Shown piece by piece: positions 1,905 through 62,162 of a DNA stretch of 64,000 nt. A program made the translations under genes and the position numbers. The notes under the pieces were generated by a model. The model was given only the letters and a program-made list of their open reading frames with translations. It was not told where the DNA came from and searched no databases. Source of the stretch: Deltaproteobacteria bacterium (GTDB lineage: Bacteria > Desulfobacterota > Binatia > HRBIN30 > CADEER01); the NCBI GenBank assembly GCA_033764095.1, contig JANRJF010000034.1, forward strand, positions 16,549-80,548. The letters are read 5' to 3'. Numbering within the stretch: position 1 is the first letter of the stretch; the number at the start of each line of letters is the position of its first letter.

Positions 1905-2678
1905 ATGCTGCGCGCTACCGCCGTCGCCCTGCTGCTGTTGGCCGCGCCATGCGCGGCGGTCGACATCGACACCGCCAAGCTGGTCGACCTCACCTACCCG
2001 TTCGGCGCCGAGACGATCTACTGGCCGACCGCGCAGGGATTCAAGCTGGAGGTCGTGCACCACGGCGACACGCCCGGGCACTACTGGTACGAGGCGAACA
2101 ACTACAGCGGCGCCGAGCACGGCGGCACCCACATGGACGCGCCGGCGCACTTCAGCGAGGGCAAGCTGACGGCGGACCAGGTGCCGATCGCCGCCGGCAT
2201 CGGGCCGCTGGTACGGGTCGACGTCAGCGCCGCGGCGGCGCGCGACCCCGACTACCGCCTGACGCGCGACGATCTGCTCGCCTGGGAGAGGGCGCACGGC
2301 CGCATCCCGGCCGGTGCCATCGTGGTGATGTACAGCGGCTGGGGCGCACGCTGGCCGGACAAGCTGCGCTACCTCGGCACCGACAAGGCCGGCGACGTCG
2401 CCAACCTGCATTTTCCTGGCTTCTCCAGGGAGGCGGCGGAGTTTCTGGTCGGCGAGCGCGACATCAAGGCGATCGGCGTCGACACGCCGAGCATCGACTA
2501 CGGCCCGTCGCAGGACTTCATCGTCCATCGCGTCGTCAACGGCGCCAACAAGCCCGGCTTCGAGAACCTCGCCAACCTCGACAAGCTGCCGGCCAAGGGC
2601 GCGACGCTGATCGCGCTGCCGATGCCGATCGAGGGCGGCTCGGGCGGCCCGCTGCGCGCCATCGCCATCCTGCCGTAA
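1905..2678 (+). CDS. Secreted cyclase family protein (kynurenine formamidase-like metal hydrolase)
   Basis: Signal peptide MLRATAVALLLLAAPCAA; HGGTHMDAPAHF motif; GVDTPSID; ENLANL; GSGGPLR. Confidence 0.9.
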   Translation: MLRATAVALLLLAAPCAAVDIDTAKLVDLTYPFGAETIYWPTAQGFKLEVVHHGDTPGHYWYEANNYSGAEHGGTHMDAPAHFSEGKLTADQVPIAAGIGPLVRVDVSAAAARDPDYRLTRDDLLAWERAHGRIPAGAIVVMYSGWGARWPDKLRYLGTDKAGDVANLHFPGFSREAAEFLVGERDIKAIGVDTPSIDYGPSQDFIVHRVVNGANKPGFENLANLDKLPAKGATLIALPMPIEGGSGGPLRAIAILP

Positions 2679-2683
2679 GAGCA

Positions 2684-2788
2684 GTGCCGAGCGATCAGCG
2701 ACGAGCGACCGGGAAGTGCCGAGCGATGAGCGACGAGCGATGAGGTATACGCGCGCTTCGCATCGCTCATCGCTCGTCGCTCATCGCT
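2684..2788. repeat. Palindromic element, family A, with duplicated left arm
   Basis: agtgccgagcgat(c/g)agcgacgagcga occurs twice, then catcgctcatcgctcgtcgctcatcgct. Confidence 0.9.
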
Positions 2789-3459
2789 TCCTACTGCTCG
2801 TGATGCTGGCGTCGTGCGGACGCGACAGCGCGCCACCCGCCGCGCCTCCGCACCTCGCCTTCGCCGCCACCGCGCATGATTTCGGTCGCGTCCCGCAGGG
2901 CACCGCGGTCGAGCACGAGTTTCCCTTCGTCAACGACGGCGGCGCGACGCTGAGCATCACCGAGCTGCGCGTCGCCTGCGACGCCGCCGCCGTGCTGGTC
3001 GGTCCCGGCGAGGTGCCACCGGGCGGGCGCGGCGCGGTGCGCGCGCGCTTCGACACCGCCGCGGCACCGGGTGCGCAACAGCGCACGGTGACCGTCTACA
3101 GCAACGACCCGACCCAACGCGCCGTCCTGCTGACGCTGGCCGGCAGCGTCGCACTGGACGCCGCGGCCGAGCCCGCACAGGTGTACCTCGGAACCGTGCC
3201 GCCGGGCGCCGAGCTGGCGCAGAGTGTCGCGCTGCGCGCCGGCAACGATGCGGTGCGCTTTCTCGGCGCCAGCAGCGCGGCGCCGCAGCTCGCCGTGCGC
3301 CTCGCCGACGCGGCCGACGGTCGCGCCCTGCTGATCGGCACCGTCGCCGGCGCGGCGCCCGGTCCATTCACCGCCGTGGTGCGCGTGCACACCACCAGCC
3401 CGACGCGGCCGCTGCTGGAGGTGCCGGTGGCGGGCATCATCGCCGCCCCGACGCCATGA
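2740..3459 (+). CDS. DUF1573-like Ig-fold lipoprotein
   Basis: HDFGRVPQG...F.FVNDG...L.I...C, vPPGgrG.v, TVTVYSNDP; lipobox LASC. Start ATG 2740 lies inside the repeat. Confidence 0.75.
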   Translation: MRYTRASHRSSLVAHRFLLLVMLASCGRDSAPPAAPPHLAFAATAHDFGRVPQGTAVEHEFPFVNDGGATLSITELRVACDAAAVLVGPGEVPPGGRGAVRARFDTAAAPGAQQRTVTVYSNDPTQRAVLLTLAGSVALDAAAEPAQVYLGTVPPGAELAQSVALRAGNDAVRFLGASSAAPQLAVRLADAADGRALLIGTVAGAAPGPFTAVVRVHTTSPTRPLLEVPVAGIIAAPTP

Positions 3460-4382
3460 GCGCGACAGCCGCCGCCCAACGCGCCTTCGACGTCGTCGGC
3501 TTCGGCTTCAATACCATCGATCACGTCTGTCGGGTGCCGCGGCCGCCGGGCGGCGACGGCAAGGCGCGCCTGCTCGACTACGCCGTGCTGCCGGGCGGCC
3601 AGGTGCCGACCGCACTGGTCGCGTTGCAGCGTTGGGACCTGCGCACCGCCTACGTCGGTCCACTCGGCGATGACGCCGGCGGCGTTCTGCAGCGCGAGTC
3701 GCTGACCGCGGCCGGTGTGGATCTGCGCGGCGCGCCGCTGCGACGTGGCGTCGGCAGTCACACGTCGATGATCATGGTGGACGCGGTCACCGGCGAGCGC
3801 AGTATCCTCTGGCATCGACCCGCCGGCCTGGCGCTCGCCGCCGCCGAGCTCGATCGCGCCACGCTGTCTTCCGGCCGCGCGCTGCTGCTCGATGCCGACG
3901 ACGTCGAGACCGCCATCCTCGCCGCCGGCTGGGCGCGCGACGCCGGTGCGTTGGTGATGCTCGACGTCGACGAGCCCGGCCCGCGCACCGATGCGCTGCT
4001 GGCGCTGAGCGACGTGGTGATCGTCTCCGACCGCTTCCCGCAGCGGCACACCGGCCGCGCCGACCTGCGCGAGGCGCTGCGCGCCATGCACGCCGCCGGA
4101 CCGCGCCTGGTCGCCGCGACGCTCGGTGCCGGCGGCGCGCTCGCCATCGCCGACGGCGAGTTGCTCTATGTTCCGGCGTTTCGCGTTGCGGTGGTCGACA
4201 CCACCAGCGCCGGCGACTGCTTCCACGCCGGCTGCCTCTACGGTCTGCTGCAGGGCTGGGATGCGGCACGCGCGTTGCGCTTCGCCGCCGGCGCCGCGGC
4301 GCTCGCCTGCACGCGACTCGGCGGCCGCTCCAGCGTCCCGGAGCTCGCTGCCGTCGGTGCCCTGGTCGACGGCGCGAGCTGA
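3456..4382 (+). CDS. PfkB family carbohydrate kinase
   Basis: GG...ALVAL..., VGPLGDDAGG, TLGAGGA, VVDTTSAGDCFHAG (PfkB signature 2). ATGA overlap with the upstream gene. Confidence 0.9.
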   Translation: MSATAAAQRAFDVVGFGFNTIDHVCRVPRPPGGDGKARLLDYAVLPGGQVPTALVALQRWDLRTAYVGPLGDDAGGVLQRESLTAAGVDLRGAPLRRGVGSHTSMIMVDAVTGERSILWHRPAGLALAAAELDRATLSSGRALLLDADDVETAILAAGWARDAGALVMLDVDEPGPRTDALLALSDVVIVSDRFPQRHTGRADLREALRAMHAAGPRLVAATLGAGGALAIADGELLYVPAFRVAVVDTTSAGDCFHAGCLYGLLQGWDAARALRFAAGAAALACTRLGGRSSVPELAAVGALVDGAS

Positions 4383-4433
4383 TCGCGTCGTCGAACCCGC
4401 TTCTGGGGCTCAAACCATCGCTGCTTATCGCGC

Positions 4434-4462
4434 GTAGGGGCGCGGCTTGCCGCGGCCCCTAC
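4434..4462. repeat. GTAG-class REP palindrome
   Basis: GTAGGGGCGCGGCTTGCCGCGGCCCCTAC between convergent genes. Confidence 0.75.
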
Positions 4463-4488
4463 GCACGGTGCCAGCGAATCGCCCCTTC

Positions 4489-6579
4489 TCACCTGGGCAG
4501 CAGGTTGCTGCCGGCGTGGCGCAGGATCGATTGCGGCACGTCGGCCTCGCTCTCGATGACGCGATTGCGCGCGTAGCTGAGGTTGATCGGGTAGGAGACG
4601 CCGAAGTCGTCGGTATACGGGCACGGCGCTTCGAAGCGCGGGTGCGCCCAATAGTTGCCGACGTAGCGGATGTTGCCGTAGGTGCGGCAGCCGCCGGTAT
4701 CGCTGCCGTACGGAATGAGGTCGGCGATGCAGTAGGGCGGGTACGGCAGCGGATCGAGCAGACTCGGGCACGGTCCGAAGTCGGCGAAGCCGGTCGGGTT
4801 GTCGTACGAGACGTTGCCGCGCAGCGTGACGTGGGTGCTGCCGCCGTCGGTGTAGAACGTGTTCGAGCCGGCGCGTGGGCGCTTGTGCGCGGCGACGTTG
4901 CCGGCGAGCAGCGTGCCGGTCGCCGGCGTCGGCCCCTGGCCGCCGACCGTGTAGACGGCACCGCCGTCCCACACCACGTTCACGTATTGCTCGATGCGAT
5001 TGGCGATCACCTTGGTCTCGCGCAGCACCGTCGGCGTGTCGAAGGTGCCCCACATCCCCGCCGTCGCGTCACCCAGGCCGGGAAAGCTCGGGCGGTCGAG
5101 CAGACCCCAGCCCCAGCCGATCGAGATGCCGGACCACGGCACGTCGATGATCGTGTTGTGCAGGATCGAGGTGCGCTGCGCGTAGCCGATCATGATCCCG
5201 GCGGCGTCCACGTAGTCGCGACCAGCGCGATAGATGTGGTTGTTGAAGAGCGTGTTGTCGCGCAGCAGGAAGCTCGCCGCCGGCGGCCGCGCGTCATCCA
5301 AGCCGACGCCGCCGATCTGCACCGCGGCGGAGGAGAGGTCGCGGAAGATGTTGCTGGTGACGCGGTTGCGCTGGCAGCCGACGACGAAGTCGATGCCGAC
5401 GGCGCCGAGGTGCTCGAAGGTGTTGCGGTCGAACTGCAGATCCGTGCCGAAGCGCACGCTGACGTTCCCCGGCGTGCGCGTCCAGTTGAGGTTGTCGTGG
5501 CCGGTGTAGTTCGGCGTGTGGTCGGTGCCGATGAGGTGGAAGCCGCCCTGGTCGGCGACGTAGCCGTCCGGCCCGCTCGGCTCCAGCCAGGTCGCGCCGC
5601 TGAAGGTGAGGCCGGAGAAGCGCAGCTTGGTCACCGGCTGCGTCGCGGTGCCGCGGATGTCCACCAACGTTTCGAGCAGCGGCAGTTCAACGGTCGCGGT
5701 GCGCAGGTCTTCGTTGAAGAACGGCCAGTAGTAGAGCCAGCCGCTGGCGCGATCGAGGTACCACTCGCCGGCCTGGTCGAGGAACTCGAGCGCGTTCTCG
5801 AAGCGCGTCACCTGCCAGAAGCTCCAGATGCCGGGCAGCCCGGAGGTCGCATCGCGGAACATGTTCGCGTTGGTCCAGCACGGCTCCTGCATGACCAGCA
5901 GACCGGGCGTGGTGCCGACTGGGGGCTCGACGTGGTCGATCGGGCAGCTCGCCATCTTCCATTGCGTCACCACCACCGCCTCGACGGCGCCCGGATTGGT
6001 CCACTTCGTCGGATCGGCGTAGTGCGCCGGGTTGAGAATCGGATTCGGCAGGTACTCGATGCCGCGCACCTCGCCTTCCGCCAACCCGTAGGTCGGACGG
6101 AAGCTGGCGAGAAAGTCCTGCGTGCGCGCGCGGGTGGCGCGCTGCCCGTTGACGTAGAGCTGGCGGGTCGCGAGGTCGCCAACGAAGGCGCGCTGGATGC
6201 GGCCGGAGTACGGCTGCCAGCCGCTCACCGCGATGGCGCCGGAGATCACCGGGTGGGCGCCCGGCGCGGCGCGGTAGACCACCTGCCGACCGCCGTCGCG
6301 CGCGTCGAGCTCCAGCGGCCGCGTCAGGCGGTAGGTCCCGTCCTCCAGGTTGATGAACACGGCGCGACCGCGCATGGCGCGCGCCGCGTCGCGGGCGCGC
6401 TCCAACGTCGCGAACGGCGCCGCGCGCGTGCCCGCCGCCGCGTCGCTGCCGTCGGGCGCCACCCACAGCTGCGCCGCGCCCTTCGCCGCGACGCGCGGAG
6501 CGAAGCCGAGCAGCGCGATCAGCAGCGCGCTCAGCAACGCTGCCAGGTCGGAACGTGGGGATCGGGTCGGCGCACGCAT
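4489..6579 (-). CDS. Secreted right-handed beta-helix protein (pectin lyase-like, GH141-like)
   Basis: GGAGG RBS before ATG 6579; signal peptide; WVAPDGSDAAAGT..APFATLERARDA, LEDGTYRL, ENALEFLDQAGEWY, HNTI.DVPWSGISIGWGW, DGGAVYT. Confidence 0.8.
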   Translation of the reverse strand: MRAPTRSPRSDLAALLSALLIALLGFAPRVAAKGAAQLWVAPDGSDAAAGTRAAPFATLERARDAARAMRGRAVFINLEDGTYRLTRPLELDARDGGRQVVYRAAPGAHPVISGAIAVSGWQPYSGRIQRAFVGDLATRQLYVNGQRATRARTQDFLASFRPTYGLAEGEVRGIEYLPNPILNPAHYADPTKWTNPGAVEAVVVTQWKMASCPIDHVEPPVGTTPGLLVMQEPCWTNANMFRDATSGLPGIWSFWQVTRFENALEFLDQAGEWYLDRASGWLYYWPFFNEDLRTATVELPLLETLVDIRGTATQPVTKLRFSGLTFSGATWLEPSGPDGYVADQGGFHLIGTDHTPNYTGHDNLNWTRTPGNVSVRFGTDLQFDRNTFEHLGAVGIDFVVGCQRNRVTSNIFRDLSSAAVQIGGVGLDDARPPAASFLLRDNTLFNNHIYRAGRDYVDAAGIMIGYAQRTSILHNTIIDVPWSGISIGWGWGLLDRPSFPGLGDATAGMWGTFDTPTVLRETKVIANRIEQYVNVVWDGGAVYTVGGQGPTPATGTLLAGNVAAHKRPRAGSNTFYTDGGSTHVTLRGNVSYDNPTGFADFGPCPSLLDPLPYPPYCIADLIPYGSDTGGCRTYGNIRYVGNYWAHPRFEAPCPYTDDFGVSYPINLSYARNRVIESEADVPQSILRHAGSNLLPR

Positions 6580-6734
6580 GGCTCTACCTCCGGAGCGCCC
6601 TCGAGGAGCAAGACAAATGCCGCGTCGTTCGCAATGCGAGCTGGGTGAGTCGGCGCGCGCCGGCCGCGTCGCGCGGCACAACGCCACCCGCGCAGCGCCA
6701 CTTTCTTGATGATGGGCGAGGCGGCCAACCCACG

Positions 6735-6774
6735 TTGACTCGGACGCGCCGATTGGTAGAACTGACCAGTCAGT
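6735..6774 (+). promoter_or_regulatory. Sigma70-like promoter with TetR-type operator
   Basis: TTGACT (6735-6740) and TAGAAC (6757-6762), overlapped by the palindrome ACTGAC-CA-GTCAGT (6761-6774), just upstream of tetR. Confidence 0.6.
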
Positions 6775-6794
6775 ACCGGAATTCAGCCCCTTCC

Positions 6795-7430
6795 ATGCGC
6801 GGACGAAAGAAGAGCGAAGACACCCGTGCGGCCATCCTGCGCTGCGCCTCGGAGGTGTTCTCCGAGCGGCCCTATCACGAGGTGCTGACCGACGAGATCA
6901 GCGGCCGGCTGCGCATCGGCAAGGGCACGCTCTATCGCTACTTCACCTCGAAGGAAGACCTCTACTTCGCCACCCTGGTGGACGGGCTGAAGGGCATGCA
7001 GGAGGCGATCGACGGCGTGCTGACGACGCGCGCGCCGCTCGAGCGCACGATCGAGGCGCTGACCCGCACCATCGTCGGCTACTTCTGGCAGCGGCGCGAC
7101 TTCTTCGTCCTGCTGCACCGGCACGAGACCAAGCTCGACCCGAGCGAGCGGGTCGAGTGGGAACAGCAGCGCGAAGCGGTGGTGGCGCGCGTCGGCGACC
7201 GCATCGCGGCCGAGCTCGGCCGCACCCGCGTCGATCCGCGGCTGGCGGTGGAGATGTTGTTCGGCATGATCCGTTCGGCGTGCCTGTATCGCGACGAGAC
7301 GGCGCGCCCCGACGACCTGGCGCGCCTGGTGACGCGCACCTTCCTGGGCGGCGTGCGCGCCGCCTTCCAGCCCCGCGCGACGCGCGCAGCGACGGCAAAT
7401 GGCAAGCGAGCGGCGGGAGGCAAGGCGTGA
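6795..7430 (+). CDS. TetR/AcrR family transcriptional regulator
   Basis: TRAAILRCASEVFSERPY...IGKGTLYRYFTSKEDL helix-turn-helix. Confidence 0.92.
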   Translation: MRGRKKSEDTRAAILRCASEVFSERPYHEVLTDEISGRLRIGKGTLYRYFTSKEDLYFATLVDGLKGMQEAIDGVLTTRAPLERTIEALTRTIVGYFWQRRDFFVLLHRHETKLDPSERVEWEQQREAVVARVGDRIAAELGRTRVDPRLAVEMLFGMIRSACLYRDETARPDDLARLVTRTFLGGVRAAFQPRATRAATANGKRAAGGKA

Positions 7431-8578
7431 GGCACGTGATCGAGTGCGCCGGTGTGCCGGTGCGCCGGTTTGCCGGTATCGACATTTCTACTTACCGGCG
7501 CACCGGCGCACCGGCGCACCGGCAGACCCTGCTTCCGCTGCTCGCCGCGATCGCGCTTCTCGCCGGCGCGTGCGCCAACCCATCCGACTCGCAGACCATC
7601 GCGACACCGACGGCGGGCAAGGCGGAGGAGACGCTGCAGGTGACGGTGGTGCCGGTGTCGTTCCGGCCGACCAAGCGGCTGTTGAAGTTCGTCGGCACGT
7701 TGTTCGGCAACCAGGAAGTGACGTTGTCGAGCCAGGTCGAGGGGCAGATCGAGAAGCTGTCGGTGGACCTCGGCGACCACGTCACGCAGGGCCAGGTGCT
7801 GGCCGAGGTGGACGACACCAGCGCGCGCGCGCAGCTGCGCGAGGTCGAGGCGCGGCTCGCCAAGGCGCGCGCCGACGAGGCGCGCGGTCGCGAGCTGATG
7901 AAGAGCAACGTCATCTCGCCGCAGGAATACGAGCAGATGCAGACCAACGTCGCGGTCGCCGAGGCGCAGCGCGACGGTATGAACGTGCAGCTGGAGCACA
8001 AGCACGTGCGCTCGCCGCTGACCGGTGCGGTGGTGAAGCGGCTGGTGTCGGTCGGCGAGTACGTGCGACCGGGCACGCCGTTGTTCGACCTGGTGGCCGA
8101 CGATCCGCTCACGCTGCGCGGCGACGTGCCGGAGCGCTTCGCCGACGAGGTCGCGGTCGGCCAGCCGGTGCAGATCAAGGTCGACGCCTACCCCGACGAC
8201 GCGTTCGAAGGGCGCCTGCTGCGCGTCAGCCCGGCGGCCAACGCGGAGAATCGCTCGATCACCGTCGAGGCGGAGGTGCCGAACGCCGACCATCGGCTGA
8301 AACCGGGCTTCTTCTCTGCCGCCAACATCGTCACCCGCGCCGACGACGAAGCGCTGGTGGTCCCCGAGACCGCGGTGGTCACCTTCGCCGGCGTCACCAA
8401 GCTGTTCGTCGTGCGCGACGGCATCGCCTACGAGCGCCACGTGCGCGTCGGCACGCGCGACGACCAGGGCCTGGTCGAGGTCATCGAGGGCCTGCACGCC
8501 GACGAAGTGGTCGCCACCTCCGGCCTCGCCAAGCTCGAAAACGGCATGGCGGTGGCGGTGCGCAAGGGCGACAGCTGA
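7427..8578 (+). CDS. RND efflux membrane fusion (adaptor) lipoprotein
   Basis: GTG overlaps the tetR stop, preceded by GGAGG; lipobox LAGAC; lipoyl halves VEGQIEKLSVDLGDHV.QGQVL and VRSPLTGAV..RLVSVGEYV; LKPGFF. Confidence 0.88.
   Translation: MRHVIECAGVPVRRFAGIDISTYRRTGAPAHRQTLLPLLAAIALLAGACANPSDSQTIATPTAGKAEETLQVTVVPVSFRPTKRLLKFVGTLFGNQEVTLSSQVEGQIEKLSVDLGDHVTQGQVLAEVDDTSARAQLREVEARLAKARADEARGRELMKSNVISPQEYEQMQTNVAVAEAQRDGMNVQLEHKHVRSPLTGAVVKRLVSVGEYVRPGTPLFDLVADDPLTLRGDVPERFADEVAVGQPVQIKVDAYPDDAFEGRLLRVSPAANAENRSITVEAEVPNADHRLKPGFFSAANIVTRADDEALVVPETAVVTFAGVTKLFVVRDGIAYERHVRVGTRDDQGLVEVIEGLHADEVVATSGLAKLENGMAVAVRKGDS
7444..7524. repeat. Palindromic element, octamer family B (GCACCGGC)
   Basis: gtgcgccggtgtgccggtgcgccggtttgccggta ... 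taccggcgcaccggcgcaccggcgcaccggca, inside the 5' end of the adaptor gene. Confidence 0.85.
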
Positions 8579-53768: not shown

Positions 53769-53776
53769 GGTCACGT

Positions 53777-54802
53777 ATGGCGGTGAAGCCGCTGCGCATC
53801 CTCGCGCTGATGCACGAGGACCTGGTGCCGCCGGAGGACGTCACCGGCATCGACACCGCCGAGGCGGACTGGAAGATGGAGTTCGACGTCACCATCACGC
53901 TGAAGAACCTCGGCCACGAGGTGCACAATCTCGGCGTCGGCGGCGACCTCGGCGTCATCCGCAAGGGCATCGACGAGGTCAAGCCGCACCTGGTGCTCAA
54001 CCTGCTGGAGCACTTCCACGGCGTACCGCTGTTCGACCAGAACGTGGTCAGCTACCTGGAGCTGCTGCGCATGCCGTACAGCGGCTGCAACCCGCGCGGC
54101 CTGATGCTGGCGCGCGACAAGGGCCTGTCGAAGAAACTGCTCGCCTACCACCGCATCCCGGTGCCGGACTTCGCCGTGTTCCCGATCGGCCGCGCCGTGC
54201 GGCGGTCGCAGAAGCTGCGCTTCCCACTCATCGTCAAGTCGCTCACCCGCGAGGCGTCGGCCGGCATCTCGCAGGCGAGCGTCGTCGAGGACGAGGAGAA
54301 GCTGCGCGAGCGGGTGCGCTTCATCCACGAGACCATCGGCACCGACGCCATCGCCGAGCGTTACATCGACGGCCGCGAGCTCTACGTCGGCGTGATCGGC
54401 AACCAGCGCCTGGAGGTGTTCCCGGTCTGGGAGCTGCTGTTCACCAAGATGCCGGACGAGCTGTGGCACATCGCCACCGACCGGGTGAAGTGGAGCCGCG
54501 TGTACCAGAAGAAGCGCGGCATCAAGACCTCGGCCTCGAAGCTGCCGGACGGGCTCGCCGAGCACGTCCAGCACCTGTGCAAGCGCATCTACCGCACGCT
54601 CAACCTGAGCGGCTACGCGCGCATCGACCTGCGCCTGGAAGAGAGCGGCAAGGTCTACGTGCTGGAGGCCAACCCCAATCCGCAGCTCGCCTACGGCGAG
54701 GATTTCGCCGAGTCCGCCGAACGCGCCGGCATGGACTATCCGGCGCTGCTGCAACGCATCGTCAACCTCGGCCTGCGCTGGCGGCCGGACCGGGGAGGGT
54801 GA
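53777..54802 (+). CDS. ATP-grasp peptide ligase (D-Ala-D-Ala ligase-like)
   Basis: LELLRMPYSG, RDKGLSK, FPLIVKS..EASAGI, ERYIDGRE, GYARIDLR, VLEANPNP. Confidence 0.88.
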   Translation: MAVKPLRILALMHEDLVPPEDVTGIDTAEADWKMEFDVTITLKNLGHEVHNLGVGGDLGVIRKGIDEVKPHLVLNLLEHFHGVPLFDQNVVSYLELLRMPYSGCNPRGLMLARDKGLSKKLLAYHRIPVPDFAVFPIGRAVRRSQKLRFPLIVKSLTREASAGISQASVVEDEEKLRERVRFIHETIGTDAIAERYIDGRELYVGVIGNQRLEVFPVWELLFTKMPDELWHIATDRVKWSRVYQKKRGIKTSASKLPDGLAEHVQHLCKRIYRTLNLSGYARIDLRLEESGKVYVLEANPNPQLAYGEDFAESAERAGMDYPALLQRIVNLGLRWRPDRGG

Positions 54803-54808
54803 GGGGCA

Positions 54809-54897
54809 AGCGATGAGCGACAAGCGATGAGCAATGAGCGGGTCATCATACTCATCGCTCGTCGCTCATCGCTCATCGCTGATTACTCGTCGCTCGT
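54809..54897. repeat. Palindromic element, family A
   Basis: agcgatgagcgacaagcgatgagcaatgagc ... ctcatcgctcgtcgctcatcgctcatcgct. Confidence 0.9.
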
Positions 54898-54918
54898 CTC
54901 TCCTCATCGGGGGTGGTG

Positions 54919-55395
54919 ATGGATGTCGGTGAGCGTCTGGCGAGCCTGGAAGCGCGGCTGCGCGCGGTCGAGGACGAGCTGGCGATCCACAAGCTGATCG
55001 TGCGCTATGGCCTGGCGGTGGACAGCGGCGACGCCGAGCGTACCGCGGCGGTGTTCGCGGCCGACGGCGTGTACGACGCCGACGTGCGCCTGATGCGCGG
55101 CCGCGCCGCGGTCGCCGACATGGTGCGCGGTGCGCGCCACCAGGCGATGGTCGGCCACTGCGCGCACCAGATCGGCCCGGCGATCGTGCGGCTGCACGGC
55201 GACACCGCGACGGCGCTCGGCTACTCGCGCGTCTACCTGCAGGAGGCCGACGGCATCGGCGTCTACCGCGTCAGCTTCAACCGCTGGACGCTGGCGCGCC
55301 AGGCCGACGGCTGGGCGATCACCCACCGCTTCACCCGCCTGCTCGGCCACGAGGAGGCGTTGGCGATCCTGCACGACGGCCTCGACGCGGTGTAG
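54919..55395 (+). CDS. SnoaL/NTF2-like family protein
   Basis: RLRAVEDELAIHKLIVRYGLAVD.GD....VFAADG, GRAAV, HGDTATA, DGWAITHR. Confidence 0.88.
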   Translation: MDVGERLASLEARLRAVEDELAIHKLIVRYGLAVDSGDAERTAAVFAADGVYDADVRLMRGRAAVADMVRGARHQAMVGHCAHQIGPAIVRLHGDTATALGYSRVYLQEADGIGVYRVSFNRWTLARQADGWAITHRFTRLLGHEEALAILHDGLDAV

Positions 55396-55410
55396 CGCGG
55401 CGTCCGCGGC

Positions 55411-58400
55411 TCACACCTTCGCCTCCTTGCGGACCTGGAACAGTCCGAGCAGGTCGGTGGCCTTGGTGCCGACGGTGGCCAGCGCGGTGAAGAACGCCAC
55501 CCACGATCCGATCGCGTCAGGCCGCGCCAGGAACAGCACCACGGCAACCACGACGATGCCGGCAATCAGGGCGTCGCGCAGCCACGCCCGGTGGGCGCCG
55601 CCGGCTCGTTCCCAGCTGGCGATCACGCTGCGCGCCTCGGCGCGCAGCACGAAGCGGCGGAAGCTCTCGTTCATCGGTCGCACCGCCGTCCCGCGCCGCA
55701 CCAGGCCGCGACGCATCAGGCGCCGCACCGCTGGCCAGGCGCGCGGGCTGACGAAGCCGTAGCGAGCCAGGTGATAGAGCGCCAGGCGTTCGTCGTCCTC
55801 CAGTGCGCACCACAGCGCCCGGTAGTATGGTTCCGACGCCGCGCCGACCGCCTCGACGAGCGCCTCGCGATCCAGCCCGGCGACGTCGAGCCGCCCGCGC
55901 AGGTCGGCGGCGATGCCGCGCAGGCGCGGTGTGGCGCTGGTCTCGCGCGCCAGCGCGTCGTCGATCGGGCGCGGATCGGGCGTGGCGCCCGCCGGCGCGT
56001 CGACCGGCACGACGCGGAGCACCGACAGCGCGCGTGCAAAGCGCGCCTGCGCCTGACGTGTTGCCGGATCCGGCGCCGCCTCGCCGTCGGCGAAGTACGC
56101 CGCCGGGTCGAGCGCCGAAACGACGTCGACCGCGGCCGACTGGGCGAGCGCGCGCTCGAGCCAGGCGGCGACCGCCGCCTGCCAGGCCGGCGCGGCGATG
56201 CAGCGCTCGAGATGGAGCAGCAGCACGGCGCGCTGCGGCGGTGGCGCTTCCCGCTGCAAGGCCTCGGCGTCGGCCAGGCGCTGCAGATCCACGCGGTAGG
56301 CGGTCTCGGTCGCGGCCGCGAGCGCCGCCGCATCCGGTGCGACGAACAGCCGGCCGCGCGACGGCTCGCTCGCCCCCGCGTCCGGCACCCCGTCCGGCAG
56401 GTGCAACCCGAACAGCCACACCGCCAGCCGGTGCAGCCCGAGCACCGCCGCGGCGAGCAGCACCACCAGCAACGCGACGGCGACCGGCGCGGCGCCGCCT
56501 GACGGCAGCGCCAACCGATACACGGCGGTGCGCAGGCGCGACGCGGCGGCCGCGCGCCGATGCGGGTCGTCGACCCGGACCTCGACCGCGCCGTCTTCGG
56601 TGAGCGGCGCGTACCAGGAGTCGTCGCTGGCGCGTTCCCAGACGGCGTGGCGCAACTGGAGCGACTCTTCGCTGTAGACCGGCCACCGGGTGAGCAGCGC
56701 CGCCGTCAGGTGGCGGGCCATCAGCACACAGGTGTCGCTGTCACCCGCCTGCCCACACCATGCGACGGAGGGCGTCGCGGCGCGCGGCGGCGTCTCGACG
56801 GCCGTGGCGTCCGCGCGCTGCTCGACGGAGCCGAGGCGCATGCCGGGAAGGTCCCACCGGTGCTGGGCGAGACTGGCGCGCGCGACGTCGTTGCCGTCAA
56901 CGCCGCCGTACTGCGCGTCCACTTGCTCGTGATGCGCGGCCAGCAGGGCAGCGCCGCGCCAGCCGCCGCGGCGCGCCAGCGCCTCGGCCGACATCTGCGT
57001 CGCATCCCGCGTCAGCACCACCGCGGGCAGCACCGAGAGGGTGACGAGCGCCAGCGCGCCGATACCGGCATAGGCATACTCGCTCCAGCGCGACGCGCCG
57101 CCGGGCCGCGAGCGCAGCGTCAGCAGCGACACGCCACCGGCGAGCCAGGCCAGACCGATCAGCGTCGTCAAGCCGCGCTGCGGGACGCTGATGGCGAGGG
57201 CGAGCCCGACGCACAGCAGCAGCGCGCTCCACAGCAACGCCAGGCGAGGCGGCGACCAGCACGCACGCGGGATCAGGTACAAGGGGACGAGCAGCAACGT
57301 CGTCACGCCGCCGAGCAGCGCGGCGAGCAGCGCCGCCGGCGCCGCGAGCTGTTGCTGGGCCCCGACCTGCCAGGCGGCGAGCAGGGCGAGCACCAGCACA
57401 CAGCTCAGGTAACGCGCGCCGGCGGCTCGGTCCGGCCACAACGCGCTCAGCGGATCGGCCGGCAACAGCGCCCGCACGCCCATGCCGACCAGCCCGTACA
57501 GCACGCCCCAGAGCAGGAATCCGATCCATCTGGTGATGCCGCTCTCGAGCGCCACCGTCCGCAGCATCTCCTTGTCGCGCGCGACGATCAGGGACCACGG
57601 CGTACCCGCCAGCGGCGCCACGTGCACGCGTTGCGCGCGGCCCTGGTAGTCGATGCTCAATCGGGCGGCGTGGCGCGCGAACACCGCAGCGCGCAGCTGC
57701 GGTGCGCCGTCGCTCTCGGCAAAGTAGTTCTCGAACAATCGCCGACCGGAGTCGGAGTGGAACAGGACGCGCCCGTCGTTCTCGACCACTGCGAAACTGG
57801 TGTCCGGCGGCAGGACCGGGTTCACCAGCGAGACCCAGTGCGGCACGATCGCGGCGACGCCGATCGGCGCTGCCGCGGCGCCGGTGGTCACCGGCGCCGC
57901 CATGATTGCCAGCGTCTCTCCGGTGTTGGGCGACGCCATCACGTTCAGTGTCACGGGCAACGCGCCAGGCGGCGTCGGCAGGACGCGCCCCTCCATGGCA
58001 TCGCGGAAGAACTGCAATCGGCCGACGTTGATCATCGGTGTCGAGTTGGAGCGGATGGTCCACTTCTCGCGCTGCTGGCCGGTGCGATCGGCCAACATCA
58101 GCATCTCGAAATGCGGCGCCGCGCGCAGGGCCTGCAGCAGCGCCGCCTCGTCCGGCGGCGTCGCCACGTCGTCGGACACACACTCCTGGCGACCGAGCAG
58201 GCGACGGCACACGACGTACCCTTCGCTGAGCTTCGTGCCCTCACTGCGCGCCGCGTCGCGACGATGCGCGATGAACGACTGCAGCGTCGCCCGGGCGGCG
58301 GCAAGCTCCTCGCCAACGTTGCGCTGCATCGCTGCCGCGACGCGCGCCGTCTCAGCGTCCGCTTGCGCGTCGAAGGCGCTGTAGGCGTACCAGGTGACGG

Positions 58401-59592
58401 CCAGGGTGGTGAGCAGCGCCGTCCCGGCCGCCAGCGACCCCAGCATGCCGAGCGCGGTGCCGAGGCGCAGGGCGTCGCGCGGCCCGAGCGTCATCCAGGT
58501 GAGGAACGGCGTCGCCAGCAGCACCAGCGTCAGGACCAACGGGACGCCCCCCATCGCGGCGAACGACACCGAGGTCTGCGCGCCCATGTCGTTGAGCGGC
58601 AGCAGCGCGCCGACCACCCAGCGCTCGTCCTGATTGGCGCCGTCGATCATCACCCGCACCGGTTGGGTCAGCAGCAGCATCTGCACGCCGTCGATCGGCA
58701 GCGTCGTCACGCCGGTGGCGCGGCCGAGATCGGCGACCCGGGGCAGGCGCGGGATTCCGCTCGATGCAGACCCGCCGGCGGCCGCGGCATCGTCCGCGGT
58801 CGGCAGCGCCGCGATGCGCAGGCCGGTGCCCCCGCGTTCGTACAGAATGCGCCCGTCGGCGTCGCTGACGAAGACGGTCGTCCCGTCGAGCGGGCTACCG
58901 GCGATGGCGCTGCCGACCAGCGTCTCGAAATCGGCCGCCGCACACGCGTGCGCCGGGCTCCGTTCCGCCTCGCACTCCGGCGCTGCGTCCAACACCGCCA
59001 GCGGCTTGGGGGCGCAGACGACCAGGTCGCCGCTGACGCTGACGTCATCGCGACGCGTGCGGTACTGCGCGCCGACGCGGTCGGAGAGGCTCGTCTGCTG
59101 CGTCGGCGCCGGGCGCAGCAGCTTGTGCGTACAGGGTCTGGCCGCCGACGCCGTGCCGCAACGTTGCGGGTCGAGTCCGTCCGCCGCGGCTGGCGTCAGG
59201 CCGGGGATCAGCCTCAGCTTGCCATCCAGGACGCTGCGGAACCGGCATGACCGGGTGGCTGCGGCACCGTCGGGCGCCAGCCGCTGCCGCGAAGCGGCCC
59301 CCGCGGCCGGCAGGTTGGCCTGCTCGTTGTGCTGCTGCCCGACCTGGTTGCGTACGTCCTGCGCGTTGCCAGCCGCCTGCACGGCGTTCGCGAAGCCCTC
59401 CTGCAGCGCGCCGATGCTGCTTTCGGTCTTCTGCGCCACCACGCCGAGCGCGCGCAGGTAGTAGTCGAGCAGATACTGCTGGCGGAAGTGGACATGCAGG
59501 TAGAAGCCGCCGACCAGCAGGGCCAGGCCGGCGAGCAGCGGCGCGCCGAACAGCAGCAGCGAGCGGATCCGTCCAGCGGGCATCGAGCTCAT
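55411..59592 (-). CDS. Large polytopic membrane protein with two Cache-like extracytoplasmic domains and a C-terminal helical/winged-helix-like module
   Basis: 1393 aa; GGAGG RBS; dCache-like signatures (LADRTGQQ, NVGRLQFFR, SPNTGE, AVVENDGRVLFHSD, PWSLIV); about a dozen hydrophobic segments; no kinase, GGDEF or MCP output recognised. Confidence 0.7.
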   Translation of the reverse strand: MSSMPAGRIRSLLLFGAPLLAGLALLVGGFYLHVHFRQQYLLDYYLRALGVVAQKTESSIGALQEGFANAVQAAGNAQDVRNQVGQQHNEQANLPAAGAASRQRLAPDGAAATRSCRFRSVLDGKLRLIPGLTPAAADGLDPQRCGTASAARPCTHKLLRPAPTQQTSLSDRVGAQYRTRRDDVSVSGDLVVCAPKPLAVLDAAPECEAERSPAHACAAADFETLVGSAIAGSPLDGTTVFVSDADGRILYERGGTGLRIAALPTADDAAAAGGSASSGIPRLPRVADLGRATGVTTLPIDGVQMLLLTQPVRVMIDGANQDERWVVGALLPLNDMGAQTSVSFAAMGGVPLVLTLVLLATPFLTWMTLGPRDALRLGTALGMLGSLAAGTALLTTLAVTWYAYSAFDAQADAETARVAAAMQRNVGEELAAARATLQSFIAHRRDAARSEGTKLSEGYVVCRRLLGRQECVSDDVATPPDEAALLQALRAAPHFEMLMLADRTGQQREKWTIRSNSTPMINVGRLQFFRDAMEGRVLPTPPGALPVTLNVMASPNTGETLAIMAAPVTTGAAAAPIGVAAIVPHWVSLVNPVLPPDTSFAVVENDGRVLFHSDSGRRLFENYFAESDGAPQLRAAVFARHAARLSIDYQGRAQRVHVAPLAGTPWSLIVARDKEMLRTVALESGITRWIGFLLWGVLYGLVGMGVRALLPADPLSALWPDRAAGARYLSCVLVLALLAAWQVGAQQQLAAPAALLAALLGGVTTLLLVPLYLIPRACWSPPRLALLWSALLLCVGLALAISVPQRGLTTLIGLAWLAGGVSLLTLRSRPGGASRWSEYAYAGIGALALVTLSVLPAVVLTRDATQMSAEALARRGGWRGAALLAAHHEQVDAQYGGVDGNDVARASLAQHRWDLPGMRLGSVEQRADATAVETPPRAATPSVAWCGQAGDSDTCVLMARHLTAALLTRWPVYSEESLQLRHAVWERASDDSWYAPLTEDGAVEVRVDDPHRRAAAASRLRTAVYRLALPSGGAAPVAVALLVVLLAAAVLGLHRLAVWLFGLHLPDGVPDAGASEPSRGRLFVAPDAAALAAATETAYRVDLQRLADAEALQREAPPPQRAVLLLHLERCIAAPAWQAAVAAWLERALAQSAAVDVVSALDPAAYFADGEAAPDPATRQAQARFARALSVLRVVPVDAPAGATPDPRPIDDALARETSATPRLRGIAADLRGRLDVAGLDREALVEAVGAASEPYYRALWCALEDDERLALYHLARYGFVSPRAWPAVRRLMRRGLVRRGTAVRPMNESFRRFVLRAEARSVIASWERAGGAHRAWLRDALIAGIVVVAVVLFLARPDAIGSWVAFFTALATVGTKATDLLGLFQVRKEAKV

Positions 59593-59604
59593 TGGCGGCC
59601 TCCG

Positions 59605-61410
59605 TCAGGCAGCGACGTCGACGTCGGTGGGGTCGTTGACCGGCGTCCACGCGCGCGCGCCGCTGCGCATGCGCCAGGCCGTGCAGGTGCGCAGATGGAC
59701 GGCGACGGCGGCGCTGAAGGCGATGGCCAGCGGCAGGCCGAGCGCCCGCACACGAGCCGAGCGCAGCCGGCCTTCGAGCCGCCGCCACCCGCACGCACGG
59801 GCGGCGGGAATGGCGAGCGACACGACCGCGTACAGCGTGGCGAGGGCGAACAACAGGTCGCGCAGGCCCCAGCTCGCCCCCACGACCACGACCAGCAGCG
59901 CCGCCGCGAGGGCGAGGCGCACGGCCGTGCGCTGCGACCAGGCGAGACGCGGCTCGGTGTGCAGGCTCTTGCCGACCAGTCGATGTGCGACGCGCAGGTG
60001 GCAGCCGAGCGCGTCGGCTCCGAGCGGCGCGCCGAGCGGCGCGCGCATGTCGAGGAAGCACCAGCCGAGTGATGCGTCGAGCGGCGGCGCGTCGGACCCA
60101 CGCAATGCCGCGCCGAGCGTGGCTGGGATGGCGTGCTGCGCGATCAGGTAGCCGTCCGCGATCAGGGCACGCGCCTCGACGCCGCTGAAGGCGTCGAGGT
60201 CGGTGCGCACGCCGGCCAGCGCCTCCTGCACGTGGCGATCGACGCCGTACGCGGTCCGCCCGCCAGTGTCGGTCACCTGCGCCGGCTTGTCGGCACCGCC
60301 GCGCCAGGTGATCTCGCGCTGCAGCAGATCCTCCTTCAAATGCAGGAAGACCAGCTGGCGCACGCTGCCGCAGCGCTCCAGCAGGTGGGCGACCGCGTAC
60401 TGCTCCTCGCGCACCCGATCCATCAGCGCGTCGTTGCTGCGCTGCACGACGCCGAACAGACGCGTCGGCGCATCCGCGCTGTCGGCCATCTGGCCGCTGG
60501 CGTCGCTGACCAGCAGATGCGTGCACGGATGCGAGGGATCGAGCAGCGCCTCGATGCCCTGGTTGTCGTGCACCCCGCCATCGACCAGCTGCGGCGTCAG
60601 CTCGTCGGCGCCGTCCTGGTACAGCTCGGTCAGCGCCAGCGGCGGAAAGATGCCGGGCACCGCCGCCGAGGCGGCAACGGCGACGCCGAGCGGCAGGCGG
60701 CGATACTTGTCGGTGGGCGCCAGGCTGTCGTAGCAGGCGCGCCGCAGGCGCAGATTGCAGTCGATGTTGTCGTGATGCGCCAGCGCTTCCGGCTCGCCGA
60801 GCCAGGTGGCGGTGAATTGGAAGCTGTGGCCGGTGTTGAGGGTCGTCGCGTTGATGACCAGCACCGGGATCTTGTTGCGACGCCGGTCGTTGGGCGTGCG
60901 GCCGTGCGTCTCCGGCTCGAAGGGGTGGAAGCCGGCCGGCTCCCCGACCGGCTGGATGGTGAGCCGCGGCAGCTCGACACGCTGCCCCGGCGCGACGCCG
61001 GCGACCGTGGCGTAGAGGTACTCCTCGTACAGCTCGGCCATGCGGTCGCTGCGCGAGTACTTGCGGTCGTGGAACATGCGCCAGTTGGCGCGCCAGTCGG
61101 CGAAGGCGCGCATGCGCAGGTTGGCACCGACCGCGGCGGTGAAGTCGCGCGCCAGCTCGTCGACCACTCCGACATAGTCGGCGCGGGTGATCGCCGCGTC
61201 GGCCTTCGCCTGCAGCAGCCGCCGCACGTGCAGGTAGTAGAGCGCGCCGACGATCGAGCCGCCCGAGACGGTGGAGAGCACCTGCACCTCGCGCAGCAGG
61301 TCGAGCTCGGCGAGCCGCGCCAGGACGCCGATGTGGAACAGCGAGGCGCGGAAGCCGCCGCCGGACAGCGCCAGGCCGAGACGTGCGGGTCGCTGCGGTT
61401 GATCGGACAT
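59605..61410 (-). CDS. Patatin-like phospholipase with C-terminal membrane segments
   Basis: AGGAGG RBS; LALSGGGFRA oxyanion loop, STVSGGS nucleophile, ASAAVPGIF, LVDGGVHDNQG catalytic Asp; hydrophobic C-terminus. Confidence 0.92.
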   Translation of the reverse strand: MSDQPQRPARLGLALSGGGFRASLFHIGVLARLAELDLLREVQVLSTVSGGSIVGALYYLHVRRLLQAKADAAITRADYVGVVDELARDFTAAVGANLRMRAFADWRANWRMFHDRKYSRSDRMAELYEEYLYATVAGVAPGQRVELPRLTIQPVGEPAGFHPFEPETHGRTPNDRRRNKIPVLVINATTLNTGHSFQFTATWLGEPEALAHHDNIDCNLRLRRACYDSLAPTDKYRRLPLGVAVAASAAVPGIFPPLALTELYQDGADELTPQLVDGGVHDNQGIEALLDPSHPCTHLLVSDASGQMADSADAPTRLFGVVQRSNDALMDRVREEQYAVAHLLERCGSVRQLVFLHLKEDLLQREITWRGGADKPAQVTDTGGRTAYGVDRHVQEALAGVRTDLDAFSGVEARALIADGYLIAQHAIPATLGAALRGSDAPPLDASLGWCFLDMRAPLGAPLGADALGCHLRVAHRLVGKSLHTEPRLAWSQRTAVRLALAAALLVVVVGASWGLRDLLFALATLYAVVSLAIPAARACGWRRLEGRLRSARVRALGLPLAIAFSAAVAVHLRTCTAWRMRSGARAWTPVNDPTDVDVAA

Positions 61411-61546
61411 GGCCACCTCCTGTCGCGGGTTCGCGTCGAGCCGCGCGGTTCGCGACGAACCGACGACCCGCCGCTACTACGCGCCGGCGGCGGCCGACAT
61501 TCGGACTTTCCCGCTCAGGGATATCCCCCACGCCCTCGCCGGCCGG

Positions 61547-61580: not shown

Positions 61581-62162
61581 ATGCCTGCCGATCCGATTGC
61601 CCGCTTCCGCCGCTGGTACGCCGCCGCCACCCGCCATGCGCAGATCGCCCAGCCCGAGGCGATGACGCTGGCGACCGCCGACCGGCGCGGCCGGCCGGCG
61701 GCGCGCGTAGTGCTGCTCAAGGACGTCGGGCCGGACGGGTTCGTGTTCTACACCAACGCCGACAGCCGTAAGGGCCGCGAGCTGGCCGACAACCCGCGCG
61801 CCGCGCTGGTCTTCCACTGGCAGCCGCTCGGACGCCAGGTGCGCGTCGAAGGACGGGTGACGATGGTGAGCGCCGCCGAGGCCGACGCCTACTGGGCGAG
61901 CCGGCCGCGCGAGAGCCAGCTCGGCGGAGCCGCCTCCGACCAGAGCGCTCCGGTCGCCGGCCGCGCCGCACTGCTGGCCCGCTGGCGGGCGCTGGCGCGC
62001 CGCTACCGCGACGCCGCCGTGCCGCGCCCGCCGCACTGGACCGGCTACCGGGTCGTCCCCGACGCCATCGAGTTCTGGACGCTGCGGCCGTACCGCCTGC
62101 ACGACCGCGAGTTGTTCACCCGCACGCGCGGCGGCTGGACGCTGACCCGCCTGCAGCCGTAG
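61581..62162 (+). CDS. pdxH: Pyridoxamine 5'-phosphate oxidase
   Basis: AMTLAT, RVVLLK, FYTN..SRKG, RQVRVEG, SRPRESQ, RPPHWTGYR, EFW...RLHDR, RLQP. Confidence 0.96.
   Translation: MPADPIARFRRWYAAATRHAQIAQPEAMTLATADRRGRPAARVVLLKDVGPDGFVFYTNADSRKGRELADNPRAALVFHWQPLGRQVRVEGRVTMVSAAEADAYWASRPRESQLGGAASDQSAPVAGRAALLARWRALARRYRDAAVPRPPHWTGYRVVPDAIEFWTLRPYRLHDRELFTRTRGGWTLTRLQP

Follow-up and report, generated by a model that had tools for sequence, protein, structure and literature searches.

A patatin-like phospholipase gene paired with a gene for a polytopic, Cache-type receptor-like protein in a Deltaproteobacteria bacterium

What could a large membrane protein with sensor-like domains on one side and no recognisable enzyme on the other control, and is the phospholipase encoded next to it the target? 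This question is raised by two adjacent genes in a 64,000-nucleotide stretch of DNA (positions 16,549 to 80,548 of contig JANRJF010000034.1, GenBank assembly GCA_033764095.1, from a Deltaproteobacteria bacterium), hereafter called the window. On its minus strand, a gene for a patatin-like phospholipase (P0002, 601 aa; 59605..61410(-), assigned from its open reading frame and Pfam PF01734) is followed by a gene for a polytopic receptor-like protein (P0001, 1393 aa; 55411..59592(-)). We propose that receptor and lipase probably belong to one membrane module, in which the receptor would gate the lipase. Gating of a neighbouring lipase within the membrane is the simplest reading because the receptor lacks an enzymatic output, because its winged helix and C-terminal hairpin are its best-kept inward parts, and because both types of partner lipase are anchored through their C-termini. 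That the two proteins touch, that control works by activation rather than by restraint, what the cue is and which biological role is served are all points that we infer.

The gene pair and the patatin

The initial annotation had described an operon-like pair of minus-strand genes separated by 12 nt, and this description holds: both open reading frames (ORFs) are present, each preceded by GGAGG. At full extent the patatin ORF covers 59605..61416(-), with an alternative GTG start at 61416. ATG 61410 is most likely the start, as judged from the ribosome-binding site GGAGG (61416..61420(-)), 5 nt upstream, and from the orthologues (53-58% identity), which begin at the same place. The gene ends with a TGA stop at 59605-59607. 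The intergenic gap of 12 nt (59593..59604(-)) carries the second GGAGG (59599-59603), 6 nt ahead of the ATG of the large gene at 59592. The GC content at third codon positions is 0.92 for the patatin gene, 0.91 for the large gene and 0.94-0.96 for the flanking genes, in a stretch with 72% GC. A simple scan for sigma-70 promoters and intrinsic terminators at the gene pair returned none of either, such a scan being uninformative at 72% GC. Among sequencing runs, one DNA run contains a fraction of 0.11 of the sampled words, and no RNA run is listed.

P0002 matches Pfam Patatin (PF01734) with 68.6 bits, against a cut-off of 27.7, over residues 15-291. From this range and from the invariant motif columns, the catalytic domain was placed at residues 13-289 (60544..61374(-)). 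Conservation was read from an alignment of eight sequences, namely the window protein, three orthologues and four TPR-S-patatin paralogues. The oxyanion-hole motif GGGFR (residues 17-21) is invariant in all eight, and so are the nucleophile Ser49 (codon 61264-61266) with both glycines of T47-V48-S49-G50-G51, and the D277-G278-G279 motif (Asp codon 60580-60582). The first position of the elbow is Thr in 8/8 sequences; this is therefore a clade-wide variant of GxSxG. Hydropathy predicts a C-terminal hydrophobic tail of two to three transmembrane (TM) helices at residues 492-574 (59689..59937(-)), which aligns with the tails of the orthologues and of the TPR-S-patatin paralogues. With these residues and the tail kept, P0002 is predicted to be a catalytically intact, membrane-tailed patatin, as had been proposed.

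The closest other patatins, from genomes of the same order (L023, L024, L026 and L027), are 890-1000 aa long and share 48-50% identity with P0002 over the catalytic part and 40-42% over the whole alignment, TM tail included. All four carry an N-terminal TPR-S domain (PF20308) of about 300 aa (E 1.7e-15 to 7.2e-12). The window patatin is without TPR-S and starts 11 residues before its catalytic domain. Since the paralogues share both core and tail, the same lipase core seems to occur either with a fused sensor or with a separate receptor. TPR-S is a marker of conflict systems, and one TPR-S-patatin gene lies among TIR-SIR2, Lipase_3 and TIR-WD40 genes (L024, G043:C6, 1-10478), in a stretch that looks like a conflict or defence island. 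As a separate observation, a gene for an MscS-type channel with a cyclic-nucleotide-binding domain lies two genes from another TPR-S-patatin gene (L023:4117-5625, genome G047).

Architecture of the receptor-like protein

Hydropathy analysis of P0001 gives, in order, TM1 (residues 12-32), a first domain D1 (33-340), TM2 and TM3 (341-399), a second domain D2 (400-690), six TM helices (691-861), a third region D3 (862-1034), TM10 (1035-1061), a soluble module (1062-1336) and a hydrophobic hairpin (1337-1393). The order of parts given in the initial annotation agrees with this as far as it went, but it had left out, ahead of the inward module, an outward region of about 170 aa (862-1034) and the tenth TM helix. 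The short loops after TM2, TM4, TM6 and TM8 are rich in Arg. By the positive-inside rule, D1, D2 and D3 would therefore lie outside and the module 1062-1336 inside.

D2 (57523..58395(-)) lies between TM3 and TM4, carries a Cys pair (462/471), and is predicted by the positive-inside rule to be extracytoplasmic. It was tentatively assigned as a double Cache domain of the dCache_1 type (PF02743) at 34.6 bits and E 1.9e-8, below the cut-off of 45, with 206 of the 240 profile positions covered. Among the relatives, dCache_1 was detected in D2 at E <= 0.01 in 11/32, and L043 alone reaches the cut-off (46.1 bits). D2 is also the best-conserved outward part, with 41-51% identity within the subclade of P0001. 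A search of the D2 profile against PDB sequences gave no significant match, the best being 3lic at E 0.19.

D1, located between TM1 and TM2 (58573..59496(-)), contains six Cys and had been described as a Cys-rich, Cache-like domain. This probably holds for its membrane-proximal half: in hhalign, a D1 profile built from 52 sequences aligned with the D2 profile over 83 columns only, at a probability of 91.4% (E 9.1e-7), the matching part of D2 being its membrane-proximal half. D1 gave no match in Pfam or in the PDB-sequence profile search. The Atlas clusters nearest D1 are dCache_1 (score 0.94), which is a lead only. D1 thus appears to be Cache-like at least in residues ~219-316. It is reasonable to speak of two predicted Cache-type sensors in P0001, the label being better supported for D2 than for D1.

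The six-helix membrane bundle (residues 691-861; 57010..57522(-)) was delimited by hydropathy and starts at the nearly invariant W719-P720. An AlphaFold model of residues 690-1062 (pLDDT 80.2, pTM 0.77) shows six helices in the bundle. D3 (56491..57009(-)) probably faces outward, given the TM count and the positive-inside loops. In the model it consists of a long helix extending TM9, a low-confidence loop and a small sheet, and its Cys946 and Cys955 are invariant in the subclade. TM10 (56410..56490(-)) corresponds to a hydropathy peak of 2.77 and to helix 346-372 of the model. No fold was assigned to residues 690-1062: the best VIA-align matches, to bestrophin-type channels, have Z scores of 7.4 and 7.3, in a range common for helical bundles, and the best Foldseek match had an E value of 1.1.

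The inward module was modelled by AlphaFold from an alignment of 51 relatives (model m2abc5a2098c0, pLDDT 85.5). In model numbering, the module starts with a five-stranded alpha/beta domain (~19-135), to which a helical part is joined; next come a winged helix, with its helices at 205-217 and 222-233 and its hairpin at 237-245, and the two long helices of the terminal hairpin. In P0001 these parts correspond to an alpha/beta domain resembling those of AAA+ and STAND nucleoside triphosphatases (NTPases) at residues 1062-1205 (55978..56409(-)), to the helical part with the winged helix, supported by fold search, at residues 1206-1336 (55585..55977(-)), and to the C-terminal membrane hairpin at residues 1337-1393 (55414..55584(-)), which is supported by hydropathy and by model helices 272-295 and 297-329.

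A VIA-align fold search against 48,161 chains matched the alpha/beta domain to Hda (3bos, Z 10.6, root-mean-square deviation 2.5, 109 aligned residues), to a DnaC-like loader (5he8, Z 9.7), to DnaA domain III (Z 9.0-9.2), and to MuB and RFC. The plant NLR (nucleotide-binding leucine-rich repeat) protein WRR4A (9qlv) matched the helical and winged-helix part (model residues 142-267, Z 8.7), and the archaeal Walker-type ATPase PAB2304 matched across model residues 15-256 (Z 8.4). Foldseek ranked ORC4 first (7jpo_D, E 6.8e-4), followed by Cdc6, RFC, Hda, RPP1, Apaf-1, Avs4 and MalT. The family signature MNESFRRF, conserved to at least 90% in 51 sequences, lies at residues 1307-1314. The initial annotation had compared this C-terminal motif to the helical/winged-helix end of STAND/AAA-like NTPases, and both the model and the fold search place it in such an end, after an AAA+/STAND-like alpha/beta domain. 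Sequence profiles gave no such match. Neither Pfam nor NCBIfam shows a family besides dCache_1 in P0001, the same is true of Pfam in 32 relatives, Walker A-bearing ones included, and the profile of the C-terminal module found nothing significant among PDB sequences (best XopAI, E 0.026).

The place of the Walker A motif reads RLFVAPDAAALAA in P0001, and GxxxxGK[ST] is not present. The canonical motif is found in 3/51 aligned relatives, with decayed forms in several others, and, of the 144 best database representatives with coverage of the site, 24 have hhhhGxPxSGK[ST]. Relatives with Walker A include L039 and L070. In the Walker B-like strand, many relatives have hhhhDH[FL]E where P0001 has LLLHLER, with His in place of Asp but with the later Glu retained. 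Since some relatives keep Walker motifs that are lost or altered here, the family descends from a real P-loop NTPase, and P0001 has probably lost nucleotide binding. The earlier suggestion of an inactive NTPase scaffold is therefore a fair description of the P0001 module. Within the subclade, the winged helix and C-terminal hairpin (42-58% identity; 40-58% for the hairpin alone) are the best-kept inward parts, compared with 29-38% for the alpha/beta domain.

In agreement with the initial annotation, no kinase, cyclase or MCP (methyl-accepting chemotaxis protein) domain was detected in P0001 at E <= 1. More generally, Pfam revealed no enzymatic output in P0001, in the 32 relatives or in 12 of the longest representatives of the family (1444-1751 aa), where dCache_1, found in 5/12 of the latter, is the only domain.

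Conservation of the pair and partners of the receptor family

The patatin-receptor pair also recurs outside the window. The subclade of P0001 is small and contains P0003 (41-43% identity), G004:C971 (42-43%), G014:C124 (32-34%) and, from metagenomes, L105 (41%) and L106 (37%, C-terminal piece only). A patatin gene followed by a receptor gene on the same strand was found in 3/3 subclade loci with enough flank, with gaps of 12 nt in the window, 8 nt in G014 (L013) and 21 nt in L105; the upstream patatins are 57-58% identical. The surroundings differ, the G014 pair lying among Tex, Phd antitoxin and Usp genes and the window pair between SnoaL and PNPOx genes. In the unpublished genome G004, the receptor gene begins 3 nt from the end of contig C971, and a patatin gene of 53-55% identity is cut by the start of contig C380; the two contig ends share no sequence overlap, which fits adjacency and does not show it. 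Sequences from G004 are also present as single rows in alignments A2-A7, and dropping these rows should change no conclusion drawn here.

The two genes might nevertheless be independent neighbours that travel together in a few relatives with no functional tie, the receptor acting as it does alone elsewhere. This would account for the numerous family loci devoid of patatin, described below, and for a genome (G299) that has the patatin without the receptor. It fits poorly with gaps of 8-21 nt, with the same order and strand in three different surroundings, and with a second, rare lipase family recurring beside other branches of the receptor family. Moreover, the genome G000 (~6.8 Mb) contains 7 patatin-domain matches and a single member of the large family, so that chance adjacency is unlikely. 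We consider independence of the two genes distinctly unlikely.

The pair is not a fixed feature of its lineage. A locus of the same-genus genome G001 (L021, G001:C8 5082-5969) is syntenic with window positions 54900-61500, the flanking genes being 77-89% identical. Between these flanks, G001 has only a 295-aa ORF, 41.6% identical to D1; the patatin gene, the SnoaL gene and the rest of the receptor gene are absent. The module is therefore accessory and turns over quickly.

That G001 lost the lipase together with most of the receptor would also be expected if the receptor restrained the lipase. According to this second alternative, the receptor keeps inactive a membrane lipase that is constitutively dangerous, as an immunity protein or antitoxin would, and the lipase is released upon loss, degradation or change of the receptor. 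In all three pairs the lipase gene comes first and its larger partner follows 8-21 nt behind, a gene order that is common in toxin-antitoxin-like pairs, and toxin-antitoxin genes are found near some family loci (L013, L015). However, a 1393-aa receptor with three outward domains far exceeds the needs of an inhibitor, G299 keeps the lipase without the receptor, and the TPR-S-fused paralogues point to sensor-driven control. Restraint is, in our view, unlikely. In the second of these loci (L015, G010:C16, 5858-9436 and 11359-13174), the family member is itself split into two ORFs (335 and 752 aa) and lies beside ParE/Phd and Gp49/HTH_37 toxin-antitoxin-type pairs.

P0001 belongs to a large family. 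A word-index homologue search yielded only 3 relatives, a method that badly underestimates the family: with the profile of the C-terminal module, 3775 representative clusters were matched at E <= 1e-3, of which 2021 at E <= 1e-30. Full-length matches are nearly all 1250-1490 aa long, with the module at the C-terminus. In the named records of metagenome-assembled genomes (MAGs; 77 loci), the family occurs in Acidobacteriota (Thermoanaerobaculia, Vicinamibacterales, Bryobacterales), Gemmatimonadota, Verrucomicrobiota, Nitrospirota, Brocadia, KSB1 and others. Among the relatives of the source genome, 9/61 have a family match, and four contigs of G004 carry matches. The 150 matches that were listed, of the 3775, include no receptor-lipase fusion. 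The family is unnamed; Pfam has no model of its inward part, and no output is known for it.

A second type of lipase, DUF2235/Tle1-like (PF09994), accompanies other branches of the family. Five loci have it, in three arrangements. The lipase gene is co-directional and downstream in L069:2232-3773 and L086:10312-11814 (at 14-20 nt) and in L130:869-2374; it is convergent in L078:9647-10366; and in L139:544-1260 a remnant lies upstream and overlaps the start of the receptor gene. The GFSRG motif is intact, and the lipases of L069 and L086 have a C-terminal two-helix anchor of their own. PF09994 is rare in genomes (2/41 relatives, 0/14 controls). Other neighbouring genes were encountered singly. 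In L043 (1840-4581), the gene 588 nt upstream of the receptor gene encodes a 913-aa patatin/cPLA2-like protein with GGGIR, TVSGGG and SDGG motifs, whose Ser and Asp motifs are separated by an insertion of about eight hydrophobic helices. In L063 the receptor gene converges with a PAF-acetylhydrolase-like gene, and in L028, whose receptor keeps Walker A, it is preceded at 11 nt by an Exo_endo_phos gene. A midpoint-rooted FastTree phylogeny was computed for 117 distinct C-terminal modules, after removal of duplicates and of sequences covering fewer than 280 profile positions (L028, L078 and L130 are thus left out). The seven lipase-linked tips on this tree need five changes, a count in which kin share labels and the labels are of unequal weight.

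These arrangements bear on a third alternative, in which the order of events is reversed. The initial annotation had suggested that the large protein might sense the lipid product of the phospholipase: the lipase would act first, and the receptor would sense or need lysophospholipid or free fatty acid, for example through its six-helix bundle. The upstream position of the patatin gene fits this order, as does the lack of a recognisable fold or function for the bundle and D3. Against it, the lipase gene is downstream in the DUF2235-linked branch, and hydropathy places the Cache domains outward and the catalytic domains of both lipases inward. No positive evidence was obtained for product sensing, which is not supported by our analysis; we keep it as a very improbable rival.

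Three further neighbourhoods were recorded in the survey. Genes for a caspase (Peptidase_C14) and a clostripain (Peptidase_C11) are convergent with a family receptor gene in a MAG labelled delta proteobacterium (L029:2999-6277). A gene for an MscS-type channel with a cyclic-nucleotide-binding domain adjoins a family receptor gene in G005 (L014:3478-5016). Finally, in L186 (G299:C79), the patatin orthologue of G299 (2241-4103(-)) is divergent from a dCache_1-PAS-HisKA-HATPase-REC hybrid kinase (4088-7555(+)), which is another Cache sensor beside this lipase clade.

Several observations weigh against gating of the lipase by the receptor. About 150 other family loci are without a patatin of this clade: when the patatin-clade profile was run over the six-frame ORFs of L013-L184, no other member was found beside a family gene, except for a weak match in L043. 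Conversely, a search of 400 other genomes of the phylum led to one, G299, with a TM-tailed patatin orthologue (47% identity, without TPR-S), and the 12 kb around it are devoid of family genes. The three adjacent pairs are not three independent events, because the subclade is small and its members are kin. Even when all types of lipase are counted, lipase-linked loci are a minority, about a dozen of some 160. Neighbours are not conserved either. In a set of 81 family loci, even the most widespread neighbour cluster was present in no more than 6; family genes were located in 152/157 public loci, with only 63 co-directional neighbours within 150 nt, mostly unrelated; and the genes analysed with Pfam, 127 neighbours from 47 loci plus another 25 that are co-directional, proved mostly unrelated. 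Since most family loci have no lipase and no conserved neighbour, the receptor must work without a lipase in most genomes. The flanks of the pair in the window are ordinary metabolic and signalling genes. Lastly, neither P0001 nor P0002 matched any family of PADLOC-DB 2.0.0 (2023 library) at E <= 0.1. The link to patatins proposed at the outset is thus kept in the subclade of P0001 (window, G014, L105) and does not extend further: for most of the family, the gene-neighbourhood survey shows homologues of the large protein that are not linked to patatins.

As noted in the initial annotation, the genes adjoining the pair are unrelated to it, with a convergent SnoaL_4 gene at 54913..55395(+) and a divergent PNPOx (pyridoxamine-phosphate oxidase) gene at 61581..62162(+). 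Beyond these, one flank continues with HAD, peptidase and BNR genes, and the opposite flank with two-component genes. The window also contains, at 53771-54823(-), a 350-aa ORF without Pfam match, with a GC content of 0.67 as against 0.72-0.76, which is 89% conserved in the same-genus genome.

Proposed function and comparison with known systems

Gating of the patatin by the receptor could proceed as follows. A cue from outside would be read by the two Cache-type domains and the third outward region. The ten membrane helices would pass the change inward to the AAA+/STAND-shaped domain, the winged helix and the C-terminal hairpin. As the nucleotide-binding loop appears to be lost in this lineage, the module would act as a conformational or oligomerisation scaffold rather than as an ATPase. 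A C-terminal TM tail of its own would keep the patatin in that same membrane, and the receptor would set the patatin's activity, so that the cue would lead to hydrolysis of phospholipids of the cell's own inner membrane.

The biological role may be of two kinds. We estimate that conflict or abortive defence accounts for about one third of the likelihood and envelope or lipid adaptation for another third, the rest being assigned to neither. The patchy distribution, the loss in the same-genus genome, the context of the TPR-S paralogues and the swapped effectors speak for a conflict role. The absence of any PADLOC match, the ordinary window flanks and the ordinary neighbours in most family loci speak against it, and so does the fact that Cache domains usually bind small molecules. 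The defence system put forward in the initial annotation had been deduced by analogy and, with neither protein matching a PADLOC model, is still a conjecture.

A broader view can be taken of the whole family, which we hold only as a doubtful but conceivable extension. Its members would form a hitherto unrecognised class of outside-in membrane receptors based on a STAND/AAA+-type switch, whose periplasmic Cache domains would sense envelope attack or change. The module, often nucleotide-independent, would oligomerise and switch on membrane-anchored phospholipases (patatin or DUF2235) or, where there is no partner gene, the receptor's own C-terminal hairpin. If this were true, the family would be a transmembrane counterpart of the bacterial cytoplasmic NLR-like immune receptors. 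In any case, it comprises thousands of clusters in soil and sediment bacteria, and the lipase pairings are a first clue to what it controls. Full-text literature searches turned up no paper on this architecture among the listings and the opening parts of abstracts, and a description may exist elsewhere.

The known systems closest to the pair each share some of its parts. The TPR-S-patatins (PF20308 with PF01734) have the same GGGFR, TVSGG and DGG motifs, post-catalytic helical region and TM tail as the window patatin. They differ from it by their fused TPR-S (about 300 aa), and no family receptor is encoded next to them. In CBASS (cyclic-oligonucleotide-based antiphage signalling system), CapV, likewise a patatin phospholipase, is the output that attacks the cell's own membrane. 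In contrast, a CD-NTase is absent here, the lipase is devoid of a nucleotide-binding domain and neither protein matches PADLOC; control would pass from protein to protein in the membrane, not via a diffusible nucleotide. The Tle1-like/DUF2235 lipases (PF09994) of type VI secretion systems have the same catalytic domain, with GFSRG intact, as the lipase partners of other family branches. These partners, which are absent from the window, differ by their C-terminal two-helix anchor and their position beside a receptor, with no secretion locus as far as the loci show.

On the receptor side, chemoreceptors and histidine kinases with dCache_1 hold an outward double Cache domain between TM helices, as P0001 probably does with D2. 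P0001 differs from them in that two predicted Cache-type domains follow one another, together with a third outward region and at least ten TM helices, and in that HAMP, kinase, MCP, GGDEF and cyclase domains are all missing from the inward part. The P-loop-type alpha/beta domain, helical part and winged helix are shared with STAND/NLR-like proteins (Apaf-1, RPP1, WRR4A, Avs4, MalT) and with initiator-clade AAA+ proteins (ORC/Cdc6, DnaA, Hda, DnaC). The general plan of STAND/NLR proteins, a sensor and an effector attached to a central switch, is also similar. However, in the receptor Walker A is lost, the Walker B Asp is replaced, and the module is set between TM10 and a membrane hairpin; the sensor is N-terminal, outward and of Cache type instead of a C-terminal repeat array, and the effector is encoded by a separate gene.

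Altogether, the logic of a sensor, an NTPase-type switch and a patatin effector is known from STAND/NLR-like proteins, TPR-S-patatins and CBASS-CapV, whereas the parts and their arrangement differ and match no curated family. If it is confirmed that a phospholipase is governed from outside the cell by way of a dead, NTPase-shaped switch, this would represent a new design of sensor-effector coupling, akin in logic to STAND/NLR and CBASS-CapV systems and built from different parts.

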